A stretch of 64,000 nucleotides of DNA from Planctomycetota bacterium (GTDB lineage Bacteria > Planctomycetota > PLA2 > JAEUHO01): assembly GCA_965222115.1 (NCBI GenBank), contig CBDCTJ010000007.1:1728001-1792000 (forward strand), given 5' to 3'. Made by a program: the position numbers and the translations under genes. The notes beneath the pieces are model-generated. The model did not search any database. It saw nothing but the letters and a program-made list of their open reading frames with translations, and was not told the origin of the DNA. The number at the start of each line of letters is the position of its first letter. The stretch's first letter is position 1. Below are positions 8,729 to 54,632 of this stretch, one piece after another.

Positions 8729-9058
8729 CCCTATCCCATTGCCCATTTATTTCGGCGTCCGAAGCGTCTCCCAGCACATCGGAGTTTAGCCTGGGCGGCC
8801 TGCCTCGCGCTGTGAGCGAAGATGCACTGAAACGTGTGCGAATCGCGCCGACTGAGTGCCGGGCTCGATGAGCCGAGTCTCGATTCAGGGAGCGGCGGGC
8901 TTCAGCGATGGACTCGCAAAGGGCGATTTGGAGGCAATTAGGCGACGTGAATTGGCCCCGAGACCCCTTCTCATTCGTGGAGGTACACGCTTTGCGCCCT
9001 ATCCTGCTGGTCCAGCATGGTCATGGCGTCACGACGGCGTCGTTTCAGGAGGCTCCGT

Positions 9059-11935: not shown

Positions 11936-12255
11936 CCCGCGCGGAAGTCTTGGAGCGCTCCTGGAGGGCGTTTGTTAGGTTGTTCTTGTTGTGCGAAGCC
12001 GCACAAGTGCCCGCGCGACTCGAATCGGTCTCGTCGCGCGGGATCGCGCACCTCCACGAACGGAGCTTTGGGGTCGAAGGACCGCGTCTGGGCAAGAATA
12101 TGGGGCTTTCCGCCTGAGTCGACTCCAGGCGAAGGGAGCTTCTCCACTGCTATACTCCTGGTACGCCCTTTGCGGTTTCGCATGCGTATCACCTTCTCAT
12201 TCGCGCCGATCCCACGCTTTCGATCCGGCCAGCGATGAGGCATTCGGAGTCATTC

Positions 12256-15218: not shown

Positions 15219-15279
15219 GGACGAAAGCCATGTGGACGGCTAGCGATGATTGGTGCCGAGCGATCTAAAATCGTGGCGC

Positions 15280-16182
15280 ATGGCCGATCCGAACCATTCC
15301 CAATCGAATCATTCCCAGCCGATCATGACGGCGGGCAAGGCACCCGACACCATTGAAGAAGCGGAGCGTGCGCTCGTAGACGTCTTGGACTCGTACCGGG
15401 AGCGTTCCTCAAAGGCGTTGGTGGCGATCTCGGGTGGTGCCGACAGCGCATTGTTGCTGCATATGGTTGCCGAGATCTGGGGACCTGAGCAGTGTCTTGC
15501 GGTAACGAGTCGATCGGAGAGTCTGCCCATCGAGGAACTCGAAGACGCGCAAGCACAGGCGCAGGCACTCGGCGTACGTCATCTCGTCCTTGCTGGAACC
15601 GAAACGCAGATCGAGGCGTTTCGGCGCAACGATGTCGATCGTTGTTTTCATTGCAAGTGGCATTTGTATGGCGAGGCCGTAGGCGTCGCGGGAATACATG
15701 GCATTGATCTCGTCATGGATGGGACCAATGCGGACGACGGTGGCGAAGGGGATCATCGGCCTGGAATGAGCGCGGCCAACAAACGCGGCGTTGTTTCGCC
15801 GCTTCGCGAGGCCGGCATCACAAAGGTCTGGGTACGCGCGATATCAAAGGCGCGCGGCCTTTCGACGTGGGACAAACCGGCCGAGGCGTGCCTGTCGAGC
15901 CGCTTTCCCTACGGGACACGGGTCACAGAAGAGGGACTCACTCGCGTGTATCGTGCGGAGCGCGTATTGCGCGATCTCGGATTTCGAACCGTGCGCGTTC
16001 GTGTGCACGACCCGATTGCGCGCATCGAATTGGGGCGCGAGGAACTCGCCGCGGCGCTCGGCCCGGGGGTTCGAACCCGCATTGTTGAGGGATTGAAGGC
16101 GCAGGGGTTCGAATTCGTCACGCTGGACCTTGAGGGATTTCGCAGCGGGAGCCTCAACCGCCCGGAAGACCCCGCTTTGTAG
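15280..16182 (+). CDS. larE: ATP-dependent sacrificial sulfur transferase, LarE family
   Basis: PP-loop SGGADS, RCFHCK, DGTNADD..DHRPG, WDKPAEACLSSRF, VTLDLEGFRSGSLN. Confidence 0.9.
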   Translation: MADPNHSQSNHSQPIMTAGKAPDTIEEAERALVDVLDSYRERSSKALVAISGGADSALLLHMVAEIWGPEQCLAVTSRSESLPIEELEDAQAQAQALGVRHLVLAGTETQIEAFRRNDVDRCFHCKWHLYGEAVGVAGIHGIDLVMDGTNADDGGEGDHRPGMSAANKRGVVSPLREAGITKVWVRAISKARGLSTWDKPAEACLSSRFPYGTRVTEEGLTRVYRAERVLRDLGFRTVRVRVHDPIARIELGREELAAALGPGVRTRIVEGLKAQGFEFVTLDLEGFRSGSLNRPEDPAL

Positions 16183-16255
16183 CGCGCTTGGCCCTTCGGC
16201 GCGCCATGTGACCGCGAATCCGTTCGCGCCGCGCCCGCGCGGCTATGATGGCGCC

Positions 16256-17413
16256 ATGCATACACGCCGCGAGAACTGGGCTGGACTCTCGTTGGTGATG
16301 GGGGCGTTGCTTGCGCTCGTGGTCATGCCGCTCATGAGCCAACGCCACCTCGCCGAGGCGCGCGAATCGGGCATGCGCGATGCACGAACTGCCATGGCCG
16401 AGCCATCGGCCCACCGAAAGGCGCGCCATCGTGCGATCGATCGCGCATGCAAGTTTCTTGCGAGCCGACAGGCGCAGGACGGTAGTTGGGGTCCCAATCG
16501 CGCCAAGATTGCAATCACATCCCTGGTACTGCTCGCGCTCATGGCAGATGGCTCTACCGATGGACGAGGACCGTACGGCGCCGAAGTCCGACGGGGCGTC
16601 ACCTTTTTGGTCAAGCTGATTGAAGAGAAGCAGCCCGATGACCCCAACCCGCGCGGGTACTTCGCCCACCCCGACGACTACACCAGCCGTATGCATGGCC
16701 AGGGGTTTGCCACGTTTGCATTGGCGACCGCACTTGGCACGTCAACCGGCAAACGCGCGGCGCGCATCCGCGGCGCCGTGATCCACGCGGTGCGTTGCAT
16801 TGAAAACAGCCAAAATGCCACCGGTGGATTTGGTTACGAGCCCAAGCGCAACTCCGATCACGAGGGCAGTGTAACGGTTGCGGTGGCGCAGGGTCTGCGC
16901 GCGGCGCGCGACGTGGGCATCATTGTTGATGAGAACGTGGTACGCAAGGGCCTCAAGTACCTAAAGTCGAGTCAGAAGAAGGACGGATCGTTTCGCTACA
17001 GTTTGTTGCGCGAAGAGTCCACCTACGCGTTGACAGGTGCGGCCCTGAGTTCGTTCTTTCTCTATGGTGCTTACGCCAAGACCTACCGCGGTACGATTAA
17101 GCGGGCCTTGGGCTACATCACCAAAAAGCTCGGAAGCCAAGGAGCAAGCCAAGACTGGTATTACTACGGCCACTTCTATACCGGATGGGCACTGTGGCAG
17201 TGGGACGGCAACAACTGGCGGCGCGGTCGGGGTCATCTCTGGGCCAACTGGCAACACCAAGTGCTCACCGACATCATGAGTCAGCAGCGCGATAGCGACG
17301 GCAGTTTTGATAAGCGCGATCGCCGTCACGACTTCGGACCGGAGCTCAGTACCGCCTTTGCTGCGCTTACGTTGGCCATTCCCGATGAAGGGTTGCCCAT
17401 CTTTCAACGGTAG
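16256..17413 (+). CDS. Prenyltransferase/squalene oxidase repeat protein with N-terminal membrane anchor
   Basis: QW-type repeats (RQAQDGSW, SQNATGGFGY, SQKKDGSFRY), MHGQGFATFAL, C-terminal LPIFQR. Confidence 0.85.
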   Translation: MHTRRENWAGLSLVMGALLALVVMPLMSQRHLAEARESGMRDARTAMAEPSAHRKARHRAIDRACKFLASRQAQDGSWGPNRAKIAITSLVLLALMADGSTDGRGPYGAEVRRGVTFLVKLIEEKQPDDPNPRGYFAHPDDYTSRMHGQGFATFALATALGTSTGKRAARIRGAVIHAVRCIENSQNATGGFGYEPKRNSDHEGSVTVAVAQGLRAARDVGIIVDENVVRKGLKYLKSSQKKDGSFRYSLLREESTYALTGAALSSFFLYGAYAKTYRGTIKRALGYITKKLGSQGASQDWYYYGHFYTGWALWQWDGNNWRRGRGHLWANWQHQVLTDIMSQQRDSDGSFDKRDRRHDFGPELSTAFAALTLAIPDEGLPIFQR

Positions 17414-17418
17414 TCGTG

Positions 17419-20400
17419 TCAACGTTGCCGCGGACGCGACAGGCGAACCTCATCCTCCCGCACGTCTCGGATCAATGTGCCTGCCTCAATCAGTGATTCT
17501 GTGGCCCGCTTGACCGCCTCACCGATCTTGGAACCACGTCGCGCAAACCCAAAGACACGCCCGGTCTCTCGCAACAGGTCTTCAACGGTGAGACTCAGAT
17601 GGGCGTCAACAATGCACAACATGGCGGCTTCGACCTCTTCGGGCGCAATGTGTTCGATATCTCGCTGTACGCCGTCGCCCGGGCGACGGGGCTGAATGCT
17701 CGTCGTGCCCGGCTTCCACAGATACGAACCGCGTCGTTCCACCTCGCCCCGCGCTTCCGCGTCACGAATGGCTTCTTGCACACGGGTTTGCGTCTTGCTC
17801 GTCACACGTGACATGCCCCACGCAATCGAAAGGCGCCGCGCGGCCACGTCCTGATGAACAGGTGCTTCCTTGGCAACGACCTTGATCACGCAATTGCGGA
17901 TGCGATGAAGCGGGACCACGTGGAATTCTTCGGCAGCTCCCTGAGGTCGTAGGTGTATGGCGTTGTAGTCCACAATGCCGGGCAGATCATCGGTTTGAAG
18001 TTCGTCGGCAAGCCATGCCTCGTCGTTCGTATCATTCGTTGAGGTACCTTCGCTGTTGATGGCGACTGGGCCATTGGGTTCCGTCGCTTGCGGCGCGGGC
18101 TCACGCAATGCACGCTGAATGGCTTGCACGCACGCATCGGGCGTCCGTACCCAGTCCGGTGACCACACATGCAAGACCCGCCATCCCAGTCGTCGAAGTA
18201 GCGCGGCGCGCGAACGCTCGCGATCGCGCGATGTAGCCGCATCGCGATACCCCGGTCCGTCACACAATAGGCCCAAAGCGAACCGGTCTCTTTGCTTTTC
18301 CGGAATCGCCACATCCACTTGAAACGCGGAGGCGCCCACGCTGTGTACCGCGTCGTGTCCTTCCCGCGCGAGTGCTTCCACGATCGCGCGCATCATTTCA
18401 GGCGCGCCATCGTCTTTGGTGTCGCGTTTTGCGGGATGGGGCCACCCCGTTCCTTGCATACCGCGGCGTGCCGTTTCCAAGTACGCGCGAAGCAAGTGGG
18501 CCCCGCGGCTTTCGGTTCGATCCAGGGCGATGTCCTCTGGCTGAATCGACGCGTAGACAATGACTTGTTTTCGGGAACGCGTAACGGCCACGTTGAGTCG
18601 CCGGTCGCCGCCGTTTGCGCTCAGCGGACCGAACAGCAAGCGGAACGTGCCTTCCGGGTTGCGCGCGTATCCCACGCTAAAGAGAATGACGTCGCGCTCG
18701 TCTCCCTGTACCGACTCAAGGTTCTTCACGAACACGGGCTCATTGGATTCCAAATCGAAGCGATGATCGAAGGACGGGTCGTCGGCGCGCAGTTCGTCGA
18801 TTGCATCCCACACCGCGTCGCGTTGTGAGGCGCTAAAGGTCACCACACCTACGCTGTCACGCGGTCGCGTCGTCAGGATGTCGAATACATGCTTGGCCAC
18901 CGCCCTCGCTTCTATTGGGTTGGTTCGTGATCCGCCGCGCCCGCCGTAAAACACGCCGTCGGGCACATGGACGAATGAAATTCCAAGTGCGGCGGGGTCG
19001 CGATCGGCATTCGGAAACGTAACGAGGCCGTTCTCATAGAAGTGTCGATTGCTAAACGAAATCAAACTCTCGTCGAGACTTCGATAGTGCCACCTTAGCG
19101 ACACATGCGGTAGAGGGCCGGCCTGACATTCATCCAATACGCTGGGCAAGTCGGTGAGTTCACCTGCCAGCAGCGCCTCACTCTCGTCTTCCTCGAAGCG
19201 CCGCGTGAAGAATCGTGTGGGCGGTAACTGTTTGGAGTCCCCCGCAACAACGACTTGCTTGGCGCGGGCGATGGCGCCAATCGCATCCTCGGTACAGATC
19301 TGTGAGGCCTCGTCAAAGATCACAATATCAAGTTCGTTGTCACCCGGTGGCAAATAGGTCGCCACGCTGAGCGGGCTCATCATGAGGCACGGCTTCAGCG
19401 CCCGCAGCAGTCGGGGAATACGATCAAAGAGCACGCGCGTGGGCAAGTGTCGTCGCTCTTTGCGCATCTCCCGCTTGAGAATACTGACTTCACTGTCGCC
19501 CGTGGCGGCGGTCGTGGGTGGAGGAATGTCCGCGCGAAGTGTGCGCGCTACGCGTGTGCATGCCTGTGTCAACTGTTGCTGATCCAATTCACAGAAGCGT
19601 TCGATTCGCTTCTCGCGTGTGGTGGCATCGAAACTGCCAAGCTCGTCTACGGTACTCAACAATCGATCGGCAAAGGCGCGCCAGAACGTTCGAAACCACG
19701 TGTCAACCAAGCGGTGGCTCGCGGCTCCCGTTTCTTCAAATGCATCCAAGTACTCGCCCAACCCCTTCGTCGAGGCATCTCCTGCGGCCCGATGCCATGC
19801 CACCCACGTGGGCAACGATGCCGTGGAGGTAGATGCCTCGTCGGCAAATGTGCGAACTTCAATGATCGGGATATCGTTTAGCGCGTGGCCAAATCGCGCC
19901 TCGACGTCCAGGTCGAGCGTTGCACACACATCATTCATGGCATGAACAAACGTGTCTGCATCCCGTGTCCATGACGCCGATGCATCGAGGAAGATCTGCT
20001 TATCTTCTGCGTTGGCCGCGTTTGCTAACTGCGTGCGCGATATCGTCTGTGACGTGAGTGCCAGGGCTTGAGAAATCCACGTGGTGTGTTTGGCCACATG
20101 CGAGAGATCGCTGCGCGCCCCAGTGTACTCGTTGCCAAAGGCCGACAGCAGCGAGGCATCGCCTGCGTCCAACTCATGGTTGTACTGCTTCACTGCAACA
20201 AGTCGCGCTACGTCGCGTGGGAGATCAACGTCGCGCTTGGTCCGGCCCGATGCGAGCTGCGCGGCGAGCATCTTTTTTGCGCGGCGTCGTCGAAACCAGC
20301 CAACGATGAATCCGCCCGAACGAGACAGCTTTGCGAGACGTTCTGCATCGAGCGCGAGGACGCCATCGTCATAGGTCTTCTGTAGCGCGGCGATCTCCTC

Positions 20401-22170
20401 CGCGCGAGCTTTGCTTGCGGCAAGTAGTGATTGGATGCGGGGCGACGCGCCGGCCCAACTGGCGTCTTCAATCCACGCCGCAGGCGGCCGGGTGGAGTGC
20501 CCAAGATGAAGCGCAAGGTTCGACAGCGCGCCGCCTTCGGCGATGCTGCCGGGGGCATCGCACGGAAGCGACGAGGCAAGTTGATCGCGTGCCCGCTCAA
20601 GATCGTCTAGCGCGGAGAGCAGTACGTTAATCTTGCGTCGAACGTCGTCCGCCGTGCCTACGCCGAGTTGCGTGAGTCCCACGTGGCGCCACGGATGCTG
20701 CTGGATGGGATCGACGGCACGGTGCAGCGGTACGAGTTCTTCCAACGTGCGTTGGGTCTCTTTGAGCGCACCGCGCGTCGTAGCGAGCGGATCACCCACG
20801 TCAAACGAGCACGGCGGTAAGTGTTGGAGGCGTGCGGCGCGACCAAAGACTTCAAATGCGCTGTACGACGATTCACCGCGGGGCGCATGCAGGGCCTCGA
20901 CGTACGCACGAAGCGTGTCTTGCAATGTTCGCAGTTCATCGAGTCCCGTTGTCTTGTCCGGCGCATCGGGCGCCCACTGCTTCCAGGCCGACGCGAGGCT
21001 TTGCACAATCTCGCGCTTGTTGGCTTTGCGACTATGAACTTCCAAACAAAACGGTCCGAGCCCCGCTTGATCGAGTCGTCGCTTGACGACATTGAGCGCA
21101 GCAATTTTTTCGCTCACGAAGAGCACGCGTTTCCCGCGCGCAAGGCATTCAGCGATAATGTTTGCAATGGTCTGCGACTTGCCGGTGCCGGGCGGTCCTT
21201 GCAGGACAAAGCTCTGGCCACCTCGCGCGGCCAGGATCGCCGCCTGTTGACTGCTGTCGGCCAATAGAATCTGATACGAATCGGCCGGGTCCATCGCGGC
21301 TTCGACGGTGCTTGGCGTTGGCAGGTCCGACGTGCCTTCGCCCATGAGCGAGACCCCTTGGGCGAGACTTTGCACAACCGCATGGGAAGCAACGGCGGCC
21401 TCGTTCTGCAACAGGTCTTGATAGAGCGGGATCTTTGCAAACGAGAACAGGGCGAGCGCCATGTCGTTGGCCACCGACCAACCATCGCGTCCTTTCGCCA
21501 GCGTTTCAAATACCTCGCGCACAACCTGCATGGGATCTTCGCTCTCGGCCCAGCCTTCGGGAAGCGATATGTCGATGCCGAGTTCTTTGCGCAGCTTTAC
21601 GATGAGTGCAGGATTTACGCGTAACTCATCATCAAAAAGTTTGAGTTGGAACGCACCGCGAGCCCCACGCCGTGTTAGCTCGACTGGAATCAGAAGCAGC
21701 GGGGCGCGTAGGGGGCGGGGATCTTCGACAGTCGTAAAGGTGAACATACCAAGTGCGATATGCAGGGTGTTGAACCCCTGTTCCTCCAACATGGCACGGC
21801 TCGACCGAAAGAGGTTGAGCAAGATGCGGTTCATGCGCTCGGATTCAAGATCGCACTGCAACGTGCTGTCGGGCCGAGGCGGCGACGTGTCGTTCGCATC
21901 GCCGGGGGCTTCTGACGTCTCCTTGGTGCTAGGCGACGGGGGCTTGGCGGGCTTACCCGCAAAGGTGTAGCGGCGCCCGTAGATCAGGCGACGGGCGACC
22001 TCGTGGGGGTCCTCTCCCACGAAGTTCAATGTGCTGGCCTTCGTGGCACGGAATGCGAGCAGGCGATTGGCGCGCGAGAGATCGATGAGTTTGTCTCGCC
22101 ACTCAGCAATGCGCTTAGCGACCAGCGGCGGCACAGCCCCAGTCGATGGCGTCGAAGCGTCCTCGGTCAT
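17419..22170 (-). CDS. DUF4011 - SF1 helicase - Vsr/MTES_1575-like nuclease - DUF3320 protein (Hhe-like, putative anti-phage)
   Basis: WRDKLIDLSRANRLL (DUF4011), QGPPGTGKSQT, IFDEASQ, GDSKQLPP, HYRS, VQGDERD, RLNVAVTR, LGWRVLHVWSPDW, C-terminal EAPVH and RVFGFAR winged-helix-like repeats. Confidence 0.85.
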   Translation of the reverse strand: MTEDASTPSTGAVPPLVAKRIAEWRDKLIDLSRANRLLAFRATKASTLNFVGEDPHEVARRLIYGRRYTFAGKPAKPPSPSTKETSEAPGDANDTSPPRPDSTLQCDLESERMNRILLNLFRSSRAMLEEQGFNTLHIALGMFTFTTVEDPRPLRAPLLLIPVELTRRGARGAFQLKLFDDELRVNPALIVKLRKELGIDISLPEGWAESEDPMQVVREVFETLAKGRDGWSVANDMALALFSFAKIPLYQDLLQNEAAVASHAVVQSLAQGVSLMGEGTSDLPTPSTVEAAMDPADSYQILLADSSQQAAILAARGGQSFVLQGPPGTGKSQTIANIIAECLARGKRVLFVSEKIAALNVVKRRLDQAGLGPFCLEVHSRKANKREIVQSLASAWKQWAPDAPDKTTGLDELRTLQDTLRAYVEALHAPRGESSYSAFEVFGRAARLQHLPPCSFDVGDPLATTRGALKETQRTLEELVPLHRAVDPIQQHPWRHVGLTQLGVGTADDVRRKINVLLSALDDLERARDQLASSLPCDAPGSIAEGGALSNLALHLGHSTRPPAAWIEDASWAGASPRIQSLLAASKARAEEIAALQKTYDDGVLALDAERLAKLSRSGGFIVGWFRRRRAKKMLAAQLASGRTKRDVDLPRDVARLVAVKQYNHELDAGDASLLSAFGNEYTGARSDLSHVAKHTTWISQALALTSQTISRTQLANAANAEDKQIFLDASASWTRDADTFVHAMNDVCATLDLDVEARFGHALNDIPIIEVRTFADEASTSTASLPTWVAWHRAAGDASTKGLGEYLDAFEETGAASHRLVDTWFRTFWRAFADRLLSTVDELGSFDATTREKRIERFCELDQQQLTQACTRVARTLRADIPPPTTAATGDSEVSILKREMRKERRHLPTRVLFDRIPRLLRALKPCLMMSPLSVATYLPPGDNELDIVIFDEASQICTEDAIGAIARAKQVVVAGDSKQLPPTRFFTRRFEEDESEALLAGELTDLPSVLDECQAGPLPHVSLRWHYRSLDESLISFSNRHFYENGLVTFPNADRDPAALGISFVHVPDGVFYGGRGGSRTNPIEARAVAKHVFDILTTRPRDSVGVVTFSASQRDAVWDAIDELRADDPSFDHRFDLESNEPVFVKNLESVQGDERDVILFSVGYARNPEGTFRLLFGPLSANGGDRRLNVAVTRSRKQVIVYASIQPEDIALDRTESRGAHLLRAYLETARRGMQGTGWPHPAKRDTKDDGAPEMMRAIVEALAREGHDAVHSVGASAFQVDVAIPEKQRDRFALGLLCDGPGYRDAATSRDRERSRAALLRRLGWRVLHVWSPDWVRTPDACVQAIQRALREPAPQATEPNGPVAINSEGTSTNDTNDEAWLADELQTDDLPGIVDYNAIHLRPQGAAEEFHVVPLHRIRNCVIKVVAKEAPVHQDVAARRLSIAWGMSRVTSKTQTRVQEAIRDAEARGEVERRGSYLWKPGTTSIQPRRPGDGVQRDIEHIAPEEVEAAMLCIVDAHLSLTVEDLLRETGRVFGFARRGSKIGEAVKRATESLIEAGTLIRDVREDEVRLSRPRQR

Positions 22171-37180: not shown

Positions 37181-40100
37181 ATGTCTGTGATTCGCAGTTT
37201 CCGAGTCGCACTGTATGCGGTGACGCCCATTGCCTTGATTGCAATCTTCGTATGTGCCCCTGCGGCTGCGAAGGAGACCCCGGCCAACGACTCGCCAGGT
37301 GTGGTGGCGAAGCGACTCCGCGCCGCCCTTCATTCGGGTGACGACGACGTGCTGACTGAGATCGCAAAGAACCCAGATAACGATCCCTGGCGTCTCATAA
37401 GTGAAGTGGCCCTTTTATCGCTGGATGACGCGGAGGCATTTGCCAACGTAGTTAAAGTGCATCGCACCAAAGAAGTAGACAAACTCGTCGACTACGTGAA
37501 GCGCCTCCGCCAAGACGATGCGCTGTCATCGGAGAAGCGGTCAAAGCGCCGTGCAACCCATCGCGCTGCCCAGGAAGCCTACAAACGGCGAGAGCTTGAG
37601 GAGGCACACAGGCTTCTCAAAGACGTAGAGTCGTGGCCGTTGGATGTCGAGTCGTTGGATGCGATCGAGCAACTCGCCTTCGTAGAGTTTCGAATGCGGA
37701 CGGGTCGATTTTATGAGTTGCTCGCCCGCGTGGCGACCGACGCCGAGTCGTTGGGCTGGCTTAGGCGTGCCGCCGCGACACATAAACGCCTCGCGAACTA
37801 CTACAGTATGGGAAAGCGTACTGCGATCACGATCGACTCGCTGAAGCGCGCGGGGGCGCTTTACGCATCGATTGGTGACGATGCGGCGTCGTGCAGGGCC
37901 CTCAGTCATGCAGCGGCCGTGTTGATCGGAGTAGGCCAGCAGGAGGAGGCCGGGAGCATACTTGCGTCGTCATTGCCCGCGGCGCGGCGCGTTGGCGACA
38001 AAACGGTGCTCGCTCGTCACCTGCTCGCGCTCGCGCGTATTCGCGTGCAAGCGGGTACGCTTGATCATGCGCTCGAGCTTTGCAACGAGGCATGGGATCT
38101 GTGCAAAGACTCGGACGACCATGTCGCAAAGTCGGCCATCCAGCAGCAGTTTGCTCTGTTGGCGGGTGAACGGGGGAATCGGGAATCGCTTTATACGCAC
38201 TATGCGAACGCGATTGCCTTCGCGGAACGAGCAGGGAACTCCGACATCCTTGCCGACATGCTCACCAAGACCGCCAACAATCACCTTGTCGATCATCGTC
38301 CGAAAGAGGCGTTGCCATTCTTGAGGCGCGCTCGTAGGGCGGCGCAGAAGGTTCGCAGCCCCGCGGTTCTTGTGCGCGTCAACGTATCTCTCGCCACCGT
38401 TCACGACGCGTTGGGCAACCGCGATGCATCACGGCGGGCTCTGCATGAAGCGAAGCGCGGTGTGGAGCGTTGTCCAGCCACATCGCAAGTGTGGTTCACT
38501 GCCACCATCGGTGCCATTCACCGTCGGCTGGGTCACTACGCCGAGGCAATCCACTTGTTGGAGAAGGCCGTCGACCTCGGCGATTCACTCAAACAGGATG
38601 TAGGCCATGTGTGGGTCGAGTTGGGGCACAGCCATGTAGCGTGTAGAAATCTCGACGCAGCGTTGCAGTGCTATTCTCAAGCGCAATCCAGCGCAACGCG
38701 CCAAGGGAACAAGGCCGTGCTGCGAGGTGCCACGCTTGGTCTGGGCAGCGTCGCGTTTATGCGTGACGACATGCCGGCAGCTGCGAAGGCGTTCCGGACT
38801 GTATTTCGTGACCCCAACGCAAAGCCGGGCATGGCCTATTCAGCCGGAAGTCTTCTTGCGCAGTGCATGGCACGCATGGGGAACGACAAGGTGGCGCTGG
38901 CGCTAGTGCAAGAGACCGAGCGCGCGTGGGCAAGCACCTCGCTTCCTCCCCACGTAAACGGAATTGACTTCACGCGAGGTCAGGTGGAGCGGTCGATCGG
39001 TGACCATGCGGCGGCACTTGCTTCCTTTCGCCGCGCCTACGAGGTCAATCGACGCATGGGCTACCTCCGTAGTCAATCCATGGCTGCCGGTGGCATCAGC
39101 GGCGCCCTATTCGCGTTGGGGAAAAAGAACGAGGCGTTGACGTGGGCGCGCCGCGCCGTAGACGTCGGCGATGCCATGACGGCGCCGTTGGCAAGCGTGG
39201 ATGCACACCGCGCGCGTGACACGTTTCGTCCGTTCTATGAGTTCGGCGTGTCTTCAGCCGCCGAGCTTGGGGATGTGAATTCCCTGCTTTATCTCGCGGA
39301 ACACGGTCGTGCGCGTGCAATTCGCGAGTCGTTGGCCGAACGGCAACACGTGGAGCGCGCCACGTTGGGGGTCGAAGAACAGCAGCGTCTCGATGAAGCG
39401 CGAAGACGTGTCACCGAGCTTCGTAAGAAACTGGAGCGTCAATCGGTTGACTCGACATCGGACGCGTCCAAGCGCCATGCCGCGGAGCTGATCAAGGCTC
39501 AAGAATCCTTGATCCGAATTACTGCGTCGCTAGAACGCAGCAGAGCATCTGCACACGGTGGCACGTGCCCGATTATCGACGATCCGGATGATGTGCAAGC
39601 TACGGTGCGATCGGATGAAGCGCTCGTCACGTTCGTCGAAGGGGCCGGCGAAACACTTGCGCTGGTGTTTACCGACAAGACCACGCGGATCGTTCGCGTG
39701 GGATCCACGAAAACGATCGAGCAACTTGTATCGCCCCTGCTGGAGAACCATGGCGGTGGGCTCCATGCAAAGTCCATAGCAACGTTGTCGAAGCGATTGG
39801 TGGAACCTCTTGAGCTAGGTGACAAGAAGACCGTCATTGTCTCACCGTCCGGTGCTTTGGCGTACGTGCCGATGGCATTGCTGATGCCGCGTCGGCATGT
39901 GGCGCATGTTCCGTCTGCCATGTCTCATGTCATGCTTCGAAGCGAGGTGCCCACGTCGGGAACGGGTGTGCTCGCACTCGGCGACGCGCGCTACAACGCG
40001 CCTTCGGCCGGTGACATGAAGTCGCTCGCGTGGCGTTCCGAACCATTGTCGCCGTTGCCCGCAAGTGGTGACGAAGCGCGTGCGGTGGGGGACACCGTGC

Positions 40101-40609
40101 TACTTGGCAAAGAGGCCAACGTTACGGAGCTGCTCAAGTCGCTCGATCGCAAAGAGCGCTGGCGTTCCGTTCACTTGGCATGCCACGGCGTTGTGGATCC
40201 ATCGCGGCCCTTGCTTTCGAGCCTTGTGATTTCGGCCGATGAGCAACACGACGGCTACGTGTCGGCATTGGATCTACTTCATATTGACGTTCGTGCCGAC
40301 CTAGCGGTGTTGTCGGCCTGCGAAACCGCTAAAGGCAAAGTGTATCGAGCGGAAGGCGTCGTTGGATTGACCAGCGCGTTTATGGCATCCGGCGCACGGC
40401 GCGTGATCACGTCGCTTTGGCGCGTTGACGATTCCGCGACCAAAGCGCTGATGACAAAGTTCTATGCGCTTTGGAATCCCAAAGACGGCACGCCGGGATT
40501 GCCTACCGCCGAGGCACTCAAGCAGGCCCAGGCGCATGTGCGAAGTCACCCAAAATGGGCGCATCCCAAGTTCTGGGCAGCGTGGGTTCTTTGGGGATTA
40601 CCTGAGTAA
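37181..40609 (+). CDS. Exported TPR + CHAT (caspase-like clan CD) protease
   Basis: Signal peptide (…CAPAAA-KE), many TPRs, intact dyad motifs VHLACHG and LAVLSACET, plus SLWRVDD and HPKFWAAW. Confidence 0.92.
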   Translation: MSVIRSFRVALYAVTPIALIAIFVCAPAAAKETPANDSPGVVAKRLRAALHSGDDDVLTEIAKNPDNDPWRLISEVALLSLDDAEAFANVVKVHRTKEVDKLVDYVKRLRQDDALSSEKRSKRRATHRAAQEAYKRRELEEAHRLLKDVESWPLDVESLDAIEQLAFVEFRMRTGRFYELLARVATDAESLGWLRRAAATHKRLANYYSMGKRTAITIDSLKRAGALYASIGDDAASCRALSHAAAVLIGVGQQEEAGSILASSLPAARRVGDKTVLARHLLALARIRVQAGTLDHALELCNEAWDLCKDSDDHVAKSAIQQQFALLAGERGNRESLYTHYANAIAFAERAGNSDILADMLTKTANNHLVDHRPKEALPFLRRARRAAQKVRSPAVLVRVNVSLATVHDALGNRDASRRALHEAKRGVERCPATSQVWFTATIGAIHRRLGHYAEAIHLLEKAVDLGDSLKQDVGHVWVELGHSHVACRNLDAALQCYSQAQSSATRQGNKAVLRGATLGLGSVAFMRDDMPAAAKAFRTVFRDPNAKPGMAYSAGSLLAQCMARMGNDKVALALVQETERAWASTSLPPHVNGIDFTRGQVERSIGDHAAALASFRRAYEVNRRMGYLRSQSMAAGGISGALFALGKKNEALTWARRAVDVGDAMTAPLASVDAHRARDTFRPFYEFGVSSAAELGDVNSLLYLAEHGRARAIRESLAERQHVERATLGVEEQQRLDEARRRVTELRKKLERQSVDSTSDASKRHAAELIKAQESLIRITASLERSRASAHGGTCPIIDDPDDVQATVRSDEALVTFVEGAGETLALVFTDKTTRIVRVGSTKTIEQLVSPLLENHGGGLHAKSIATLSKRLVEPLELGDKKTVIVSPSGALAYVPMALLMPRRHVAHVPSAMSHVMLRSEVPTSGTGVLALGDARYNAPSAGDMKSLAWRSEPLSPLPASGDEARAVGDTVLLGKEANVTELLKSLDRKERWRSVHLACHGVVDPSRPLLSSLVISADEQHDGYVSALDLLHIDVRADLAVLSACETAKGKVYRAEGVVGLTSAFMASGARRVITSLWRVDDSATKALMTKFYALWNPKDGTPGLPTAEALKQAQAHVRSHPKWAHPKFWAAWVLWGLPE

Positions 40610-40755: not shown

Positions 40756-43026
40756 GTGATTCCAGACGTGGTTATCGATCAAGTGCGCGACGCACACGAC
40801 ATTGTCGAGATCGTATCCCGATTCACCCCGCTCAAGCGAATGGGGTCCGCGTACAAAGCGCTTTGTCCCATGCAGGGGCACGACGAGAAGACGCCGTCGT
40901 TCACGGTCAATCCGGGACGGCAAATCTATAAGTGCTTCGGATGCGGCCGTGGCGGCAACGTCTTCAGATTTCTCATGGAGATGCAGGGTCTCACCTTTGT
41001 TGAGGCAGTACGCGCGTTGGCCGAAGAGCGCGGCATTTCGCTTCCGAGCACCTCCGGAATCAAGGGTCCACCGCCCAACCGAAAGCGAAAGACGTTGCGC
41101 GCTCTATCATTGGCTCAGCGCTACTTTCACGCGTGCCTCCTGCGTGATGGCGAAGGCGATGTCGCGCGCGCTTACCTGACGAAGCGCGGCTACGACCTGT
41201 CGGCCATTCGGCAATTTGGCTTGGGCTACGCACCTGCATCGCGCCACGGGCTGATTGATGCACTTAGGAAACGTAGCGTAGACGAGCAAACGTTGTCAGA
41301 CGCCGGACTCATTTACGCGCGCGAAGGTGCCAAACCCGCTGCCGATCGTTTTGTACACCGTGTCATGTTTCCCGTTACGAACTTGCAAGGCCAAGTCGTT
41401 ACGTTTGGAGGCCGCGCGCTCAATCCCGAAGAACGCGCCAAGTACCTCAACGGTCCAGAGACATTCGTCTTTCATAAGTCGCAAACACTCTATGCACTTG
41501 ATCGTGCGCAAGGTCCGATTCGCAAGCGTGGTGAAGCGCTCATCATGGAAGGCTACACCGATGTGCTGATGTGCCACATGCATGGCTTTGATCATGCGGT
41601 GGCGGGCATGGGCACGGCGTTTACCGCTCAGCAGGCGCGGCTAATCAACCGTTTCGCGTCGCGTGCCCTGTTGCTCTACGACGCGGATGACGCTGGACAA
41701 AAGGCCGCCGAGCGCGCCGTGGAGATCCTTTTGGAGGCAGGCCTGGAAGTGCGTGTCGTTGTCTTGCCTGAGGGGCGCGACGTGGACGAGATCTTGCTCG
41801 AAGACGGGAGTGATGCGCTCGACAGGATCCTCGGCGGGGCGCTCAACCTCTTTGATTACAAGATCGTGAGGTTGGGCCGTGAACATGATTTGCGAACGCC
41901 GCGCGGTCGTGCGGCCGTTGTGGAGGCGCTTGCGCCCACCATTGTCCGGGTGCGCAGCCCGGTGGAGCGCGAACAGCTCATTCGCCACGTCGCCGAACGA
42001 ATCGGCGGGGATCGGGAGCAGGTCACGACCGAGCGACTCCTGCGAGCCGAGGCGGCGCGCGTCGTTCAGTCTGAGCAGCGCATTGCCCGTCGCCGATCGC
42101 GCCGTTCTGCCCCACGTGCTGCGCGATCGTCTGCGAACGACGCGACTCAAGTGCTCAGCGACGAGGAGCGCACGCGTCGCGAGAGCCGTTCGCGCGATGA
42201 ACTCGATCTGTTGGGCGGTTGCTTTGTGTCGCGGGAACTGCTTGATGCGGTGGCGCGCGCCATGGGCCCCGAGGACTTTGTGCACCTCGCCCATCGCCGT
42301 GCCTACGAGGGGGTCTTGGCCGAGCTCGATGCGGGTCGTGTGGAATCGGGACAGCCCATGGAACTTCATCGCCTCTTGAAGCGTTTTATGGGGGATCCCG
42401 AGGTTTTGAACGTGCTGACAGCCCTGCCAGATGATGCTGCTCTCGACGAGCGTGTGACGTTTCAGATCGAGTTTGTCGAGAAAGATCGTCTCCGAAAGAA
42501 CCGCTTTGCGCGCCTCAAAGCCCGGTTGCGGGAGGGCGCGGAGGCGCCCGCGAATCCACCTCAGACGCTGCCTGCCTCGTCCGTTACGAACGCCATGACA
42601 GGAGCGAGCGGTGAGGGATCCGATCCGACGATGCGGCTCGAATCGCCGCTCGAGTCGCCGCAGAAAACAACAGAAATCTCAAAACGGGTCGTGGCGAATG
42701 ATGCGCAACCCTCGGCGGGGTGCGATCCTCTCGACACTGTACAATTGGATATTCAGGTGGAGTTTGACGAAGAAGGGTGTCCCGTGCTCGACGGCCCACC
42801 GGATGACGCAGAGGCGTACATCGCGGGTGTTGGCGACGAACAATGGATTACCCAAGAGGCATCGTCGACTTCATCGCGTTCATCGTCTGGTTCCGGCACT
42901 TTAACAAGCGGCACATCAGCAAGCAATACGAGTACATCAGACGATGTCTCCCTTGTTGTGGATGCTGACGCTCGTTCTTCCTCGTCAAGCGACCCGTCGT
43001 CCGATGCGAATGAGTCCAACGAGTGA
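40756..43026 (+). CDS. dnaG: DNA primase with a long acidic/Ser-rich C-terminal extension
   Basis: Zn-binding CP...H.EKTPSF...CFGC, RVMFP, FGGR, KYLNGPET, MEGYTDV, YDADDAG (TOPRIM). Confidence 0.95.
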   Translation: MIPDVVIDQVRDAHDIVEIVSRFTPLKRMGSAYKALCPMQGHDEKTPSFTVNPGRQIYKCFGCGRGGNVFRFLMEMQGLTFVEAVRALAEERGISLPSTSGIKGPPPNRKRKTLRALSLAQRYFHACLLRDGEGDVARAYLTKRGYDLSAIRQFGLGYAPASRHGLIDALRKRSVDEQTLSDAGLIYAREGAKPAADRFVHRVMFPVTNLQGQVVTFGGRALNPEERAKYLNGPETFVFHKSQTLYALDRAQGPIRKRGEALIMEGYTDVLMCHMHGFDHAVAGMGTAFTAQQARLINRFASRALLLYDADDAGQKAAERAVEILLEAGLEVRVVVLPEGRDVDEILLEDGSDALDRILGGALNLFDYKIVRLGREHDLRTPRGRAAVVEALAPTIVRVRSPVEREQLIRHVAERIGGDREQVTTERLLRAEAARVVQSEQRIARRRSRRSAPRAARSSANDATQVLSDEERTRRESRSRDELDLLGGCFVSRELLDAVARAMGPEDFVHLAHRRAYEGVLAELDAGRVESGQPMELHRLLKRFMGDPEVLNVLTALPDDAALDERVTFQIEFVEKDRLRKNRFARLKARLREGAEAPANPPQTLPASSVTNAMTGASGEGSDPTMRLESPLESPQKTTEISKRVVANDAQPSAGCDPLDTVQLDIQVEFDEEGCPVLDGPPDDAEAYIAGVGDEQWITQEASSTSSRSSSGSGTLTSGTSASNTSTSDDVSLVVDADARSSSSSDPSSDANESNE

Positions 43027-45881: not shown

Positions 45882-46466
45882 ATGAATCGCATCTGGATCA
45901 TGGGCACCACGGGCGCTGGAAAAACCACGTTGGGACGCACGCTAGGCGAGGTGCTCGACGCACCCTTCTATGACATGGACGAACTCTACTGGCGTCCCGG
46001 TTGGACGAACGCCACCGACGAAGAGGTGAACGAGCAACTGGATCGAATCGTCGCGTCGCCCACATGGGTCATTGCAGGCAACTACCGTCGCTTCCGCCGA
46101 CTGCGCATGCATCTTGTTGATCTTCCTGTGTGGCTCGATCTGCCATTCCACACGACCTATCGTCGTTTGCTGGGGCGCACGTGGCGCCGAGCTGTTCAAG
46201 GTGAACTGTGTTGCAATGGAAACTACGAGTCGATTCGCCGCACGCTTCTTAGCCCCGAGTCGATCCTCTGGTGGGGGGCCAAGACGTATCGCCCCCTTCG
46301 CCGTGCGCTTCACGACGAACAGTGGCCTGAGCCCTATGCGCGTCTGCGAACACCTCGCGACGTTGAACGATTCGTCCAATGCATACGCATGCGTGCCAGG
46401 CACAGCGACGTACGCCATCGGTGTGCCTGGCACCGAGGTGTATGGAAAAGTGACGAGGGGCCGTAA
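45882..46466 (+). CDS. Adenylate-kinase-like / topology modulation P-loop protein
   Basis: RIWIMGTTGAGKTT, MDELYWRPGW, WVIAGNY, WLDLP, CNGNYES. Confidence 0.85.
   Translation: MNRIWIMGTTGAGKTTLGRTLGEVLDAPFYDMDELYWRPGWTNATDEEVNEQLDRIVASPTWVIAGNYRRFRRLRMHLVDLPVWLDLPFHTTYRRLLGRTWRRAVQGELCCNGNYESIRRTLLSPESILWWGAKTYRPLRRALHDEQWPEPYARLRTPRDVERFVQCIRMRARHSDVRHRCAWHRGVWKSDEGP
46393..46433. repeat. 12-bp inverted repeat gtgccaggcaca / tgtgcctggcac, 3' of rnpB
   Basis: Perfect inverted arms at 46393-46404 and 46422-46433, each centred on CCWGG. Confidence 0.7.
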
Positions 46467-46845
46467 GCCGGGTTCTGTCCCAACAAGTGGGGATGACCAT
46501 CGATCTCGGACCGCCGTCTCCGACGGCCTCTAGCAACCTACCCGGAAGTACTGGCGGCGCGGGTCACGCCGCGTTCCTCGAAGGGAACTCCTTCACTCTC
46601 GGTTTCGCTCCTGGAGGGGTTTGTCGCGCCGGAGACGTCGCCGCTTCCGCGGTGGGCTCTTACCCCACCTTTCCACCCTTACCTGTGCTCATCCGAAGAC
46701 AAGCCATCGGCGGTTTAAGTTTCTATGACACTTTCCCTAGCTCGCGCTTGTGGGAGTTACCCACAATCCACGCCCTGTGGAGCCCGGACTTTCCTCGGCG
46801 CCCATGCAAGCACAGGCGACGCGGTCATCTAGGCCCGCTCGTCAC
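46450..46845 (-). ncRNA. rnpB: RNase P RNA (bacterial class A)
   Basis: Minus strand carries GAGGAAAGTCCGGGCTC and ACAGAACCCGGCTTA. Ends pair as P1 (gtgacgagcgggcc / ggcccctcgtcac). Confidence 0.96.
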
Positions 46846-46907: not shown

Positions 46908-47882
46908 CTACGAACCGCGGCGCGGTCTCGCACTTCCGGGCTTCCACTTGCGCGCCTTCTTGTTGTCGTTCCACCAGCGACGCCAGTCGCGCGGATCCGA
47001 TAGGTTCTGGCCCGTGAGTTCCTGCAGCGTGAACCGCAAGGTCTTGCCGTAGACCTTGTAGCGCTCGGTTGCCTGCGCGCGCGCAATGCGATCCTCTGGG
47101 CGGACCGACATCATGAGGTTGCGTGTGCTTGCGTAGAGATTGAGCAGCCGAAGCACCGCCTCCTTCTTGTGCTTGACCGGGACCGAGCGATAGGCCGCCA
47201 ATGCTTGGGCCGCTTCCGCCACTACGTCCGCCGGTTCGTCGCTGCGAATGAGCTCGGCGAGGGGTTCGATGGCGCTCGGATGATCAACGACCGCGAGTAC
47301 ATGAGCGAAACGCATGCGGGCATCGTTGTCTCGTCGGTAGCGCTTGTCGTCTAGCAGCTTAGTCAGAATCTTGACCATCGATTTGTCGCGATACTGTTCG
47401 ACCAGCGCAAAGGCCTTGTTGCGAACACCTTCATCGAGGATGGGCGCCGCGCGCAAGGCGGCGAGACCTGCCTCCGTGCCACGCAAAGAGGCCAGGGCAT
47501 CGAGGATCTTGTGAACCTCGTCGAGCTTCTTCTTGACGTGGGGGCTGCGCGCAAGTTTGCCGAGTCGGATGCGAAGATTCTTGATCGATCGCAGCCGGGC
47601 GGCGTCCATGCCTTGCTTGACGGTGTCCTTAACTTTCTTTTCAGAGACGCCGCCGTCTTCGTCTTCGGTCTCCGCCGCGGTGTCTTTTTCGAGTGCCTCG
47701 CCCTTTGCGGGTGCCTCGACGGCTGGTTCATCGGCCTTGGCGAAAGACGGGGCCACCCAGGCTGCAGTCAATGAGATCAGTCCGATGCCGAGTGCAAATC
47801 TCAGTGATTTGACGCTCAGCCGCGGCCACATGGGGACACTAGTAGGAAAGTCGCGCTGGGGGTCGGGCAGATGCTTGCTCAT
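46908..47882 (-). CDS. Exported HEAT-repeat protein
   Basis: GGAGG RBS, signal-like helix, HEAT-like repeats, C-terminal LQELTGQ..SDPRDWRRWW. Confidence 0.8.
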   Translation of the reverse strand: MSKHLPDPQRDFPTSVPMWPRLSVKSLRFALGIGLISLTAAWVAPSFAKADEPAVEAPAKGEALEKDTAAETEDEDGGVSEKKVKDTVKQGMDAARLRSIKNLRIRLGKLARSPHVKKKLDEVHKILDALASLRGTEAGLAALRAAPILDEGVRNKAFALVEQYRDKSMVKILTKLLDDKRYRRDNDARMRFAHVLAVVDHPSAIEPLAELIRSDEPADVVAEAAQALAAYRSVPVKHKKEAVLRLLNLYASTRNLMMSVRPEDRIARAQATERYKVYGKTLRFTLQELTGQNLSDPRDWRRWWNDNKKARKWKPGSARPRRGS

Positions 47883-47963
47883 GGAACCTCCTGCATCCTA
47901 ACGTTTCCTGTCGGGGCTTGCAGAGACCACCCGCAGTCCGCACTCAAATCGCACCGGAGGCCT

Positions 47964-49166
47964 ATGACAGCCGCCATCGACGCCCTAACACAACTACGCA
48001 GCGAGTTTCCCACGCTCGAATCGTCCACCTATCTCATTAGCAACTCGCTCGGCGCCATGCCGCGCGGCGCCCGACGCGATCTCGAGTCGTACGCCGACAT
48101 ATGGACCTCTCGTGGCGTGCGCGCGTGGGCCGAACGTTGGTGGGCACTTTCGGGTGAGGTTGGGGACACCATCGGCCAGCTCTTTCATGCCGAGCCCGGC
48201 ACGGTGTCGATGCATCAGAATGTAACCATCGCGCAGGCGATTCTCATTTCATGTTTCGACTGGAGCGGGAAACGCAACAAGGTCGTTTATACGAGCATGC
48301 AATTTCCGTCGATTGCCTACGTCTACGATCGACTCGCTAAGCCACTTGGCGCTGAGATTCACGTCGTGGATTCTCCCGATGGTATTGGTGTGCCCACGGA
48401 AGCCGTACTTGACGCCGTCGACGAAAACACATTGCTTGTGCCGATTAGTCACGTGCTATTTCGAAGCGCCTACATTCAAGACGCCAAAGCGATTTGCGAG
48501 AAAGCCGAACGCGTGGGTGCCCACGTTGTTCTCGATGCCTATCAGTCGATAGGTACGGTACCAACCGACGTGCGAGATCTTCGTTGTTCGTTCCTGGTGG
48601 GGGGCGTGCTCAAGTGGCTTTGCGGAGGGCCAGGCGGGGCCTACCTCTATGTGCGACCGGATCTTCGCGACACGCTTGAACCTAACTTCACTGGTTGGAT
48701 GGCACACCCACGGCCGTTCGCTTTTGAAGCAGCACCCATTGAATACACGGAAGGTGCGTATCGCTTCCTAAATGGAACGCCAAATGTGCCTGGCTTGTAT
48801 GCGGCACAGGCCGGCCCGAAGCTTGTGTCGCAAGCGGGCTTGGATGCGATTCGCGAGAAGAGCATGATTCAGACAGCCCACTTGGTAGAGCGCGCCGACG
48901 AGAAAGGCTGGCGTGTGACGGCGCCTCGCGATCCAGCGCGCCGAGGCGGTACGGTGGCTGTAGACGTTCCACACGCCGCCGCCGTGAAGCTCGAATTGCT
49001 GGAGCGCGATGTGGTCGTTGACTATCGACCCGGCGCGGGTATTCGCATTTCGCCCCACTTCTACAACACTATGGACGAGTGCGATCACGCGATCGATCAA
49101 ATCGACGACATTCTCGCGACCGGCGCTTGGAAGCGTCACGCCGACGCTGCGCCCACGGTTACGTAG
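47964..49166 (+). CDS. kynU: Kynureninase-like PLP enzyme (class V)
   Basis: YLISNSLGAMP, LDAYQSIG, GGVLKWLCGGPG, GW.AH..PF.F, RRGG. GGAGG RBS. Adjacent to kynB. Confidence 0.82.
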   Translation: MTAAIDALTQLRSEFPTLESSTYLISNSLGAMPRGARRDLESYADIWTSRGVRAWAERWWALSGEVGDTIGQLFHAEPGTVSMHQNVTIAQAILISCFDWSGKRNKVVYTSMQFPSIAYVYDRLAKPLGAEIHVVDSPDGIGVPTEAVLDAVDENTLLVPISHVLFRSAYIQDAKAICEKAERVGAHVVLDAYQSIGTVPTDVRDLRCSFLVGGVLKWLCGGPGGAYLYVRPDLRDTLEPNFTGWMAHPRPFAFEAAPIEYTEGAYRFLNGTPNVPGLYAAQAGPKLVSQAGLDAIREKSMIQTAHLVERADEKGWRVTAPRDPARRGGTVAVDVPHAAAVKLELLERDVVVDYRPGAGIRISPHFYNTMDECDHAIDQIDDILATGAWKRHADAAPTVT

Positions 49167-49170
49167 CCGC

Positions 49171-49809
49171 ATGAAAATTCACGACATATCACGCACACTA
49201 CGATCGACCATTGGCGTTTGGCCAGGGGATACACCATTTTCATTTGACTTTGTAGCGCGTATCGCCGAAGGGTCGTCGGTCAATGTCGGTCAAATCAAGA
49301 TGAGCGTTCATACTGGTGCACACATTGATGCGCCGCTGCACTTTGAAGACGGAGCGCCCGACGCGGCGTCCGTTCCCCTCGCCAACTACTACGGACCCTG
49401 CGTAGTACTCGATGCGCGACCGAGTGATCGTGGCATCTTGCCCGAGCATCTTAGTGACCATACTGAGGCGACCATTCGCAGCGCTCGTCGCGTGCTCATC
49501 CGCTCGTACGCCAAGCGGCCCCCGGGTTTCGATGAACACATGGCTCACGCCACGCCCGAACTTGCCGATTGGCTTGCGTCTTTGGGCGTAGTGCTTCTCG
49601 GCGTCGACTCCGACTCGATGGATGCCTTTGAGAGCAAAGAGCTGCCCGCGCATCATCAATTGCATCATCACGGTATTGCGATTCTTGAAGGTGTGGACTT
49701 GTCGAGGGTTTCACCGGGTACGTACACACTTTGCGCGTTGCCGCTCAAGATTGAAGGCGCAGATGGAAGTCCGGTTCGCGCCGTACTTATTGAAGACGCA
49801 CCGAATTAA
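49171..49809 (+). CDS. kynB: Kynurenine formamidase (cyclase family)
   Basis: VWPGDTPF, HTGAHIDAPLHF, GVDSDSMD, ILEG.DL, ALPLKIEGADGSPVRAVL. Confidence 0.87.
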   Translation: MKIHDISRTLRSTIGVWPGDTPFSFDFVARIAEGSSVNVGQIKMSVHTGAHIDAPLHFEDGAPDAASVPLANYYGPCVVLDARPSDRGILPEHLSDHTEATIRSARRVLIRSYAKRPPGFDEHMAHATPELADWLASLGVVLLGVDSDSMDAFESKELPAHHQLHHHGIAILEGVDLSRVSPGTYTLCALPLKIEGADGSPVRAVLIEDAPN

Positions 49810-49833
49810 CGGCACGTAAGTAGGGACGAGATC

Positions 49834-50430
49834 ATGACATCGATAATCTGGATCGAAGAACTTCAAGCAGCAAAGGCTGCATCCAAAGAGTCTGGCAAGT
49901 TGTTGCTCACCTATGTCTATTCGCCGGGATGACTCGGCTGCAAACAGATGGGTGCCGTGACGTACCCCGATGCCGATGTCGCGAACGCGCTTGCCGAACA
50001 CTTCGTGCTCTACAAGATCAACATGATGGAACGCCATCCCGACTTCAAAGAAGCGTGCGCGGGTGCAAAGGTCATGTGGGGCCCTACGATCATAGTGGCC
50101 GACGCGCGTGGAAACGAAGTGCGACGTTGGACGGGTTGGCTCGATCCCAAGGCCTTCGTCGCCGAGCTTGACTTGACACGCGCCCTCGCGCTGCATCACA
50201 GCGCAAAGTTTCAAGAAGCGCTCGAGGGTTTTACCGCACTTGTTGAAGGGGACACATCCACGTCGCTCATGCCGGAAGCGCTCTATTGGCAGGGCATCTC
50301 GGGATTCATGGCGGGTAAAATGGACTGGGATGCGCTGGGGAACGCTTGGCGCGCCGTGGCGAAGACATATCCCGGTACACGCTTCGGTATGCATGCATCG
50401 GTCATTAACCAGGCGCCAAACGCAGGCTAA
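49834..50430 (+). CDS. Thioredoxin-fold + TPR-like protein with an in-frame UGA (putative selenocysteine, U-L-G-C)
   Basis: ATG 49834 reads MTSIIWIEELQAAKAASKESGKLLLTYVYSPG-TGA(49930-49932)-LGCKQMGAVTYPD, in frame with the track ORF 49948..50430. Confidence 0.85.
49950..49967 (+). promoter_or_regulatory. Candidate bacterial SECIS hairpin
   Basis: Stem GGGUGC/GUACCC with loop CGUGAC. G-U at loop positions 2-3; loop begins about 24 nt after the UGA. Confidence 0.55.
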
Positions 50431-52630: not shown

Positions 52631-52647
52631 TCCCCTCTCAGCATCGC

Positions 52648-52720
52648 TGAGGAGTAGTTCAGTTGGTAGAACGCCTGATTCTGGATCAGGAAGTCGTAGG
52701 TTCGAGTCCTACCTCCTCAG
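52648..52720 (+). tRNA. tRNA-Gln (anticodon CTG), CCA not encoded
   Basis: Acceptor TGAGGAG/CTCCTCA, anticodon arm CCTGA-TTCTGGA-TCAGG, T arm GTAGG-TTCGAGT-CCTAC. Confidence 0.96.
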
Positions 52721-52723
52721 TTC

Positions 52724-54556: not shown

Positions 54557-54632
54557 GGCCCCTTCGTCTAGTGGTCTAGGACACGGCCCTCTCAAGGCTG
54601 AAACACGGGTTCGAACCCCGTAGGGGTCACCA
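54557..54632 (+). tRNA. tRNA-Glu (anticodon CTC) with encoded CCA
   Basis: Acceptor GGCCCCT/AGGGGTC-A-CCA, anticodon arm CGGCC-CTCTCAA-GGCTG, T arm ACGGG-TTCGAAC-CCCGT. Confidence 0.96.

Follow-up and report, generated by a model that had tools for sequence, protein, structure and literature searches.

The 64-kb window (the whole stretch of DNA that was analyzed) carries at positions 49834..50430 (+) what is very probably a selenocysteine (Sec) gene of a known family. The full coding sequence specifies 198 aa when its sole in-frame TGA, codon 33, is read as Sec (U). The product, a thioredoxin-fold UxxC selenoprotein with a TPR-like tail, is a new member of the already catalogued "thiol:disulfide interchange protein" selenoprotein family (PF13098), whose representative, WP_011366075.1, we take to be from G. 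metallireducens. The annotation of the gene is hereby corrected, and the organism very probably uses Sec; the understanding of Sec decoding or of thioredoxins is unchanged by this gene.

The in-frame TGA and the downstream hairpin

The table-11 ORF list for the window contains the 160-aa piece at 49948..50430 (+) alone, which lacks the active site, and not the 198-aa coding sequence. In a first-pass annotation, made from the sequence alone, it had been proposed that an upstream ATG opens a thioredoxin-like N-terminus and that annotation pipelines would truncate the gene. The first of these proposals was borne out by a Pfam search, in which the 198-aa protein passed PF13098 Thioredoxin_2 (35 bits versus a cut-off of 27) and also Thioredoxin_7, whereas the 160-aa piece alone gave no match. 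No NCBIfam model scored above its cut-off for the window protein.

In order to analyze the gene at the codon level, we used the window together with four related loci (L001-L004) obtained in one scan of GTDB genomes. These loci originate from Acidobacteria bacterium Mor1, two Acidobacteriota MAGs and one Eisenbacteria MAG, and their products share 53-63% protein identity with that of the window gene. A start codon is present in all four at the position equivalent to the ATG at 49834 (+). In the window, this ATG is preceded at a distance of 7 nt by a Shine-Dalgarno-like purine-rich sequence, AGGGA (49822..49826, +), which may act as the ribosome binding site; no Shine-Dalgarno-like sequence occurs at normal spacing before 49948. 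The reading frame is closed by a TAA at 50428-50430 (+).

The TGA (49930..49932, +) occupies the first position of the redox motif (Y-S-P-G-U33-L-G-C36-K-Q-M), as had been recognized at first pass, and PDB sequence matches align the U/C pair of the window protein with the CxxC of DsbD-gamma. A comparison of homologs for Cys or TGA at this codon, suggested at the same stage, revealed TGA in all four related loci. Within the top 150 of the 1418 library representatives, 67 proteins span residue 33, and 62 of these have Cys there. The remaining spanning proteins have Ser (3), Gln (1) or a gap (1); the 67 are more distant, and some of them are multi-domain thioredoxins outside the family. Sixty-four other proteins of this set start at residue 39. 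Truncation was observed directly among the close homologs (n = 109, the window's own entry included): in 105 of them the annotated start is the Met that corresponds to residue 39, and residue 33 is not covered by any. Cys36 (49939..49941, +), the second partner of the UxxC pair, is conserved as Cys in 61 of the 67 spanning homologs and in all four loci and, by analogy with thioredoxin chemistry, would be the resolving cysteine of the motif.

The 32 codons located 5' of the TGA are under purifying selection. L001 and L002 differ in this stretch by four synonymous and no non-synonymous changes, and third-position differences exceed those at the first and second positions in 10 of 10 pairs.

The first-pass annotation had also pointed to a hairpin, GGGUGC-CGUGAC-GUACCC, at a SECIS-like distance from the TGA. 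This bacterial SECIS-like element (49950..49967, +) is composed of a 6-bp stem, with arms GGGTGC (49950-49955) and GTACCC (49962-49967), and a 6-nt loop, CGUGAC, in which the G at position 2 is followed by U. The UGA and the loop are separated by 23 nt, and the energy of the structure is −8.0 to −8.8 kcal/mol. The bSECIS model, as set out in the Fig. 2 legend of PMC13188914, allows a loop of 3-9 nt, a stem of 4-16 bp, a G at loop position 1 or 2, a spacing of 16-37 nt and an MFE of ≤ −7.5 kcal/mol, and the window hairpin fits all of these limits, even at −8.0. A scripted filter using the same limits was passed by three of the four relatives. In the case of L003, the hairpin failed the strict filter (it is borderline, at −7.5, when flanks are included), and it is not the preferred fold within its 60-nt context (pair probability 0.0).

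On its own, the window hairpin is no more stable than could arise by chance (z = −0.34 to −1.84 relative to shuffled sequences, five folds), and a model-conforming hairpin is present at 70 of the 1778 TGA triplets in the six frames of the window. An open TGA-x-x-Cys together with such a hairpin occurs at three of these 1778 triplets, the other two being antisense to kynB and dnaG, and this combination is beyond chance. The hairpin pointed out at first pass stays within the published limits, at a spacing of 23 nt, and has the compensatory pair described below, but the element is not statistically unusual when taken alone.

Pairing of the stem is kept in 30 of 30 cells across the five sequences, with one G-C/A-U double change. 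The compensatory pair connects codons 40 and 44, which are Gly40 (GGT) and Tyr44 (TAC) in the window but Asp40 (GAT) and Tyr44 (TAT) in the relatives. This TAT is the only one among the 4-7 Tyr codons of each relative's gene; TAT usage in the neighboring ORFs of the relatives (chosen by eye) amounts to 3/57, 1/35, 3/37 and 14/39, and is thus rare in three of the four loci. Moreover, the degenerate codons of Ala41-Val42-Thr43 are identical in all five sequences, which elsewhere is the case for 12 of 69 such codons. A covariation shuffle control with the five sequences was not significant (102/500 shuffles), as expected because only five rows were available. The substitution pattern places the compensatory change that mended the SECIS stem on the branch leading to the window gene. 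The conserved TGA, the Cys column, purifying selection on the 32 upstream codons and the model-conforming SECIS with its compensatory pair support the Sec oxidoreductase proposed at first pass.

Protein architecture and proposed function

The AlphaFold2 model of the protein, based on a 76-row alignment (mean pLDDT 95.6), comprises a thioredoxin alpha/beta domain extending to approximately residue 104 (49834..50145, +), followed by five helices. The thioredoxin domain was also recognized with Foldseek, whose best match was 1uc7 DsbD-gamma (E 1e-6), and with VIA-align, which gave Z 15.5 and rmsd 2.4 over 123 residues for 3f9u, and Z 15.2 for DsbH 2ju5; the range for DsbD-gamma, DsbH and related thioredoxins was Z 14.6-15.5, with rmsd 2.3-2.8 over 111-126 residues. 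The residues W82-G83-P84-T85 (50077-50088, +) are located at the place of the thioredoxin cis-Pro loop, which we presume them to form, and Pro84 is present in 108 of 108 close homologs. A further cysteine, Cys75 (50056..50058, +), lies within a subclade-specific segment, ERHPDFKEAC, which is missing from the Geobacter-type representative. The corresponding column in the close homologs contains Cys in 87 of 108 cases, Ser in 13 and Thr in 5. No hydrophobic N-terminus or signal-peptide-like stretch was detected in the first 30 residues (Kyte-Doolittle 11-residue maximum 0.79).

According to DSSP of the model, the C-terminal module (residues 105-193; 50146..50412, +) consists of five helices. The designation as TPR-like, suggested at first pass, is based on TPR, YbgF and BamD profile matches in homologs (among the 76 aligned members, Pfam TPR_16 in 13, TPR_6 in 10 and NCBIfam YbgF in 38). 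For the window protein, Pfam gave no TPR match, and NCBIfam YbgF gave E 0.001. A fold search with the tail only, for which the model was weak (pLDDT 66.5), returned mostly TPR or helical-repeat proteins at Z 6-8.2, values within the range given by common helical bundles.

The best overall explanation of these data, which we consider highly likely to be correct, is that the gene encodes a cytoplasmic Sec-containing thiol:disulfide interchange protein. Translation would start at 49834 and, as in the established mechanism, SelB with Sec-tRNA(Sec) acting on the hairpin past the UGA would insert Sec33. From what is known of Sec and thioredoxin biochemistry, Sec33 would be the attacking nucleophile, and Cys36 would resolve the mixed selenenylsulfide. 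The most likely outcome, with the direction of the reaction presumed, would be the reduction or reshuffling of disulfides on protein substrates, with the TPR helices possibly picking or holding the partner. The enzyme would then be re-reduced by thioredoxin reductase or a low-molecular-weight thiol. A disulfide-reductase function of the Sec protein is likely.

The order of the domains (thioredoxin, then TPR) is the same as in CnoX/YbbN (PMC8129009), which raises the possibility that the selenoprotein acts mainly as a chaperedoxin, i.e. a holdase of the CnoX kind that protects the cysteines of its substrates, possibly via Cys75, and hands its clients to GroEL or DnaK, rather than as a simple reductase. 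The YbbN chains 3qdn and 3qou were indeed matched by Foldseek at E 2e-5, and Cys75, being a third conserved Cys, invites an analogy with Cys63, through which E. coli CnoX binds its substrates, as described in the same source. However, superposition with YbbN gave TM 0.39/0.28 and an rmsd of ~11, the thioredoxin domain is nearer to DsbD-gamma/DsbH, and the tail has five helices versus the ten of CnoX (PMC8129009). In addition, the window gene has no groEL or other chaperone gene next to it, and none was seen in the four loci. We therefore regard a principal role as a chaperedoxin as unlikely, and retain the thiol:disulfide interchange protein as the preferred reading.

Genomic setting and decoding of the UGA

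The gene is placed 24 nt 3' of kynB and 47 nt 5' of recQ, with kynureninase and arylformamidase genes upstream. The tandem kynureninase-like and arylformamidase (kynB) genes (47871-49809, +) score just or well below the respective NCBIfam cut-offs, and no tryptophan 2,3-dioxygenase gene was seen beside them. When five window neighbors (kynU, kynB, recQ and the genes for a HEAT protein and a kinase-like ORF) were used in tblastn searches, no match was found in the four related loci. Since no neighbor recurs, we rejected a link of the selenoprotein with RecQ or with the catabolism of tryptophan. In L004, an Acidobacteriota MAG, a ferritin-like gene (5537-5998, +) ends 2 nt before the start of the homolog; this is the only redox or iron neighbor seen in the four loci. 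No match indicating a mobile origin was obtained among 72,556 plasmid or 50,697 phage records, and the promoter and terminator scan remained at chance level (2 found versus 1.9 expected, and 7 versus 5.7).

Several other features of the window were recorded. Three tandem paralogs of ~960-970 aa (5846-8728, 9017-11935 and 12235-15120, all +) have a lipoprotein-like N-terminus, a common GSGGSGPGPDG stretch and one Big_5 Ig-like domain, and belong to no NCBIfam family. They are followed by genes for a LarE-type sacrificial sulfur transferase (278 bits, above the cut-off) and a prenyltransferase/squalene-cyclase-repeat protein (15250-17413, +). On the strand opposite to its neighbors, a possible defense gene (17419-22170, −) encodes a 1583-aa DUF4011 helicase-nuclease resembling the anti-phage ProA/Hhe proteins (1366 bits versus a cut-off of 1500, and 771 versus 2000). 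A 1142-aa TPR-CHAT protease-domain protein (37181-40609, +) is encoded downstream of a Ser/Thr kinase gene and a small ORF, and DnaG (40756-43026, +; 756 aa) carries a long acidic Ser/Thr-rich C-terminal extension, its profile covering residues 1-415. The RNA genes comprise RNase P class A RNA (46450-46841, −), which at its 3' end overlaps with the terminus of the kinase-like ORF 45882-46466, tRNA-Gln(CTG) (52647-52721, +) and tRNA-Glu(CTC) (54557-54632, +).

With regard to the selABCD machinery implied at first pass, searches with ARAGORN, Rfam and NCBIfam (38 ORFs scanned) revealed no selA, selB, selD or tRNA-Sec in the 64-kb window, a result that does not bear on the remainder of the genome, and no tRNA was found in L001-L004. 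The former result would fit an orphan gene or pseudogene, descended from a Sec gene in a host that has lost the Sec machinery or, after transfer, never had it, so that only fragments are made. The relatives that can be named belong to Acidobacteriota and Eisenbacteria and have no neighbor in common with the window gene, and Sec is patchily distributed even among members of one phylum (PMC4807772), both of which are compatible with such an origin. However, according to the same source sel genes can lie dispersed and need not adjoin their targets, the reading frame is intact, and the stem of the SECIS was mended on the window's own branch. Furthermore, Met39 is also the annotated start of P0003, the closest homolog (76% identity), which is the sister of the window gene in the tree (SH-aLRT 99), which suggests, from the annotated start and leaving the codon itself aside, that the stop has lasted in this lineage. 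We consider an orphan gene improbable, and infer that Sec is inserted in this host.

The UGA might also be read in another way, as Cys by an opal tRNA-Cys (selC*), or as Trp or Gly under genetic code 4 or 25. There are precedents in selC* tRNA-Cys(UCA) and in nonsense-suppressor tRNAs of acidobacteria (PMC5389517), and the Sec column is occupied by W in the database homolog P0258, which probably results from a genetic code 4 gene call reading through the UGA. In the window, however, TGA is used as an ordinary stop, closing 5 of 31 long ORFs, including that of a complete EF-G (profile match to position 688 of 691), and Trp is encoded by TGG (213 codons). Full-length homologs have Cys, and not Trp, at this position. 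As far as the available part of PMC5389517 goes, selC* is known from anaerobic Firmicutes, Thermodesulfobacteria, Nitrospirae and Proteobacteria; those of its hosts that are isolate genomes also encode the complete Sec apparatus. Such alternative decoding is very improbable.

Finally, it is hardly credible that the 160-aa ORF is the true product, a redox-dead TPR adaptor with the upstream reading as a relic: the annotation of so many close homologs in this form, some of them named "TolA-binding protein" or "TPR repeat protein", would speak for it, but in the shorter protein the thioredoxin sheet is missing its first strands and no Pfam match is obtained, the upstream codons are under purifying selection, and a Shine-Dalgarno-like sequence precedes 49834, with none at normal spacing before 49948.

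Family spread and comparison with known systems

A quick tree was constructed from 152 of 195 rows; a row was dropped if its length fell outside 140-225 aa, if it stopped short of residue 175 or if its start was unclassifiable. In this tree, the window gene is part of a 19-row clade without a full-length Cys form (SH-aLRT 92). The 152-row set contains 103 start-truncated and 48 full-length rows, which are interleaved, and if the start-truncated rows are taken as Sec, at least 11-12 Sec/Cys changes are forced by strongly supported branches. These numbers, behind which the TGA was seen directly in only five sequences, suggest that the family is larger and more often mis-annotated than early counts indicated. 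The Sec form (TGA confirmed in those five) may outnumber the Cys form across the family, with repeated switches between the two. The active site is missing from the database entries of at least 105 close homologs. With a curated profile, many selenoproteins would be recovered, and the family would no longer be confined to the Deltaproteobacteria of its first listing.

The subclade that includes the window protein (characterized by ERHPDFxxAC, Cys75 and WGPT, and found in Acidobacteriota, Eisenbacteria and this host) may be widespread and Sec-only, and could conceivably represent a selenium-dependent chaperedoxin. Sec33/Cys36 and Cys75 would then shield or repair substrate thiols, and the TPR helices would hold the substrate. 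We put this forward as a tentative idea and think it rather doubtful; if true, the group is hidden in databases under "TPR", "TolA-binding" or hypothetical proteins.

The best sequence and fold matches of the window protein, over residues 1-120, are DsbD gamma/DsbH-like thioredoxins (1uc7, 2fwe, 3f9u, 2ju5), whose CxxC corresponds to U33/C36. These are periplasmic or membrane-linked Cys enzymes. In contrast to them, the window protein lacks both a signal peptide and a membrane part, contains Sec and carries a TPR-like tail. Membership of DsbD proper, which has a signal peptide, a transmembrane domain and ~570 aa, was rejected on the basis of length (198 aa), the lack of a hydrophobic segment and a score of 46 bits versus a cut-off of 330. 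The NCBIfam families TsoB (NF045694), VPGUxxT types (NF041382/3) and Trx7/PDZ (NF041199) display weak similarity in the thioredoxin domain; they were rejected because the scores are far below the cut-offs (24 versus 805; 20 versus 275) and the motifs and architectures are different.

CnoX/YbbN proteins (3qou, 3qdn) share with the window protein the thioredoxin domain followed by TPR helices, as well as a cytoplasmic location. They differ in length (~285 versus 198 aa), in having two five-helix TPR subdomains (PMC8129009) versus one module here, and with respect to the UxxC motif of the window protein. Membership was rejected in view of the superposition values given above, a TPR region of half the size and the absence of a CnoX profile match among the 76 members. 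Among the Leptospirillum thioredoxin-fold proteins described in the accessible part of PMC7084401 there is no Trx-TPR fusion of this kind, and this candidate was also rejected. A motif search of the main texts of papers gave irrelevant matches only.

The known system to which the gene belongs, the thiol:disulfide interchange selenoproteins, had not been recognized in the first-pass annotation; a 2026 review places it under "predicted with high confidence". It is still listed as predicted, and any member is therefore an open biochemical target. No experimental study of the family was found in the literature, although subscription journals and supplements may hold one, and the matches of 76 members include no family-specific NCBIfam model. 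The 2006 survey (PMC1794560) counts three members, which come from Syntrophus and from two species of Geobacter. WP_011366075.1, as given in the deep-Sep supplement (PMC12013277), has 190 aa with U at position 33 (PGUIGCKQMDAVAYPD), and supplement file 1 of that paper contains another member with a G-U-L-G-C motif.

Counted from the start Met without any gap, Sec is residue 33 in both the window protein and WP_011366075.1, and lies in a single UxxC (U33-L-G-C36 versus U33-I-G-C36). Over residues 31-49, 15 of 19 residues are identical (by eye), and the two proteins, of 198 and 190 aa, have in common the WxPT loop and the tail elements PEA-x-Y-x-x-G and (Y)P. Homology with WP_011366075.1 itself was judged by eye, and was computed for two proteins of the same type. 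P0258 (Geobacter-type) is homologous over the full length, tail included (29% over 188 residues, E 1e-26), and P0201, a phmmer match of the query (E 2e-14, 32%), looks like a near-identical Cys form of WP_011366075.1. The window protein differs from the Geobacter-type members in overall identity (~30%), in its extra ERHPDFKEAC segment with Cys75, and in having WGPT versus WTPT. The recorded hosts differ as well: the window type occurs in Acidobacteriota, Eisenbacteria and this host, and the members named in the 2006 survey occur in Syntrophus and Geobacter.
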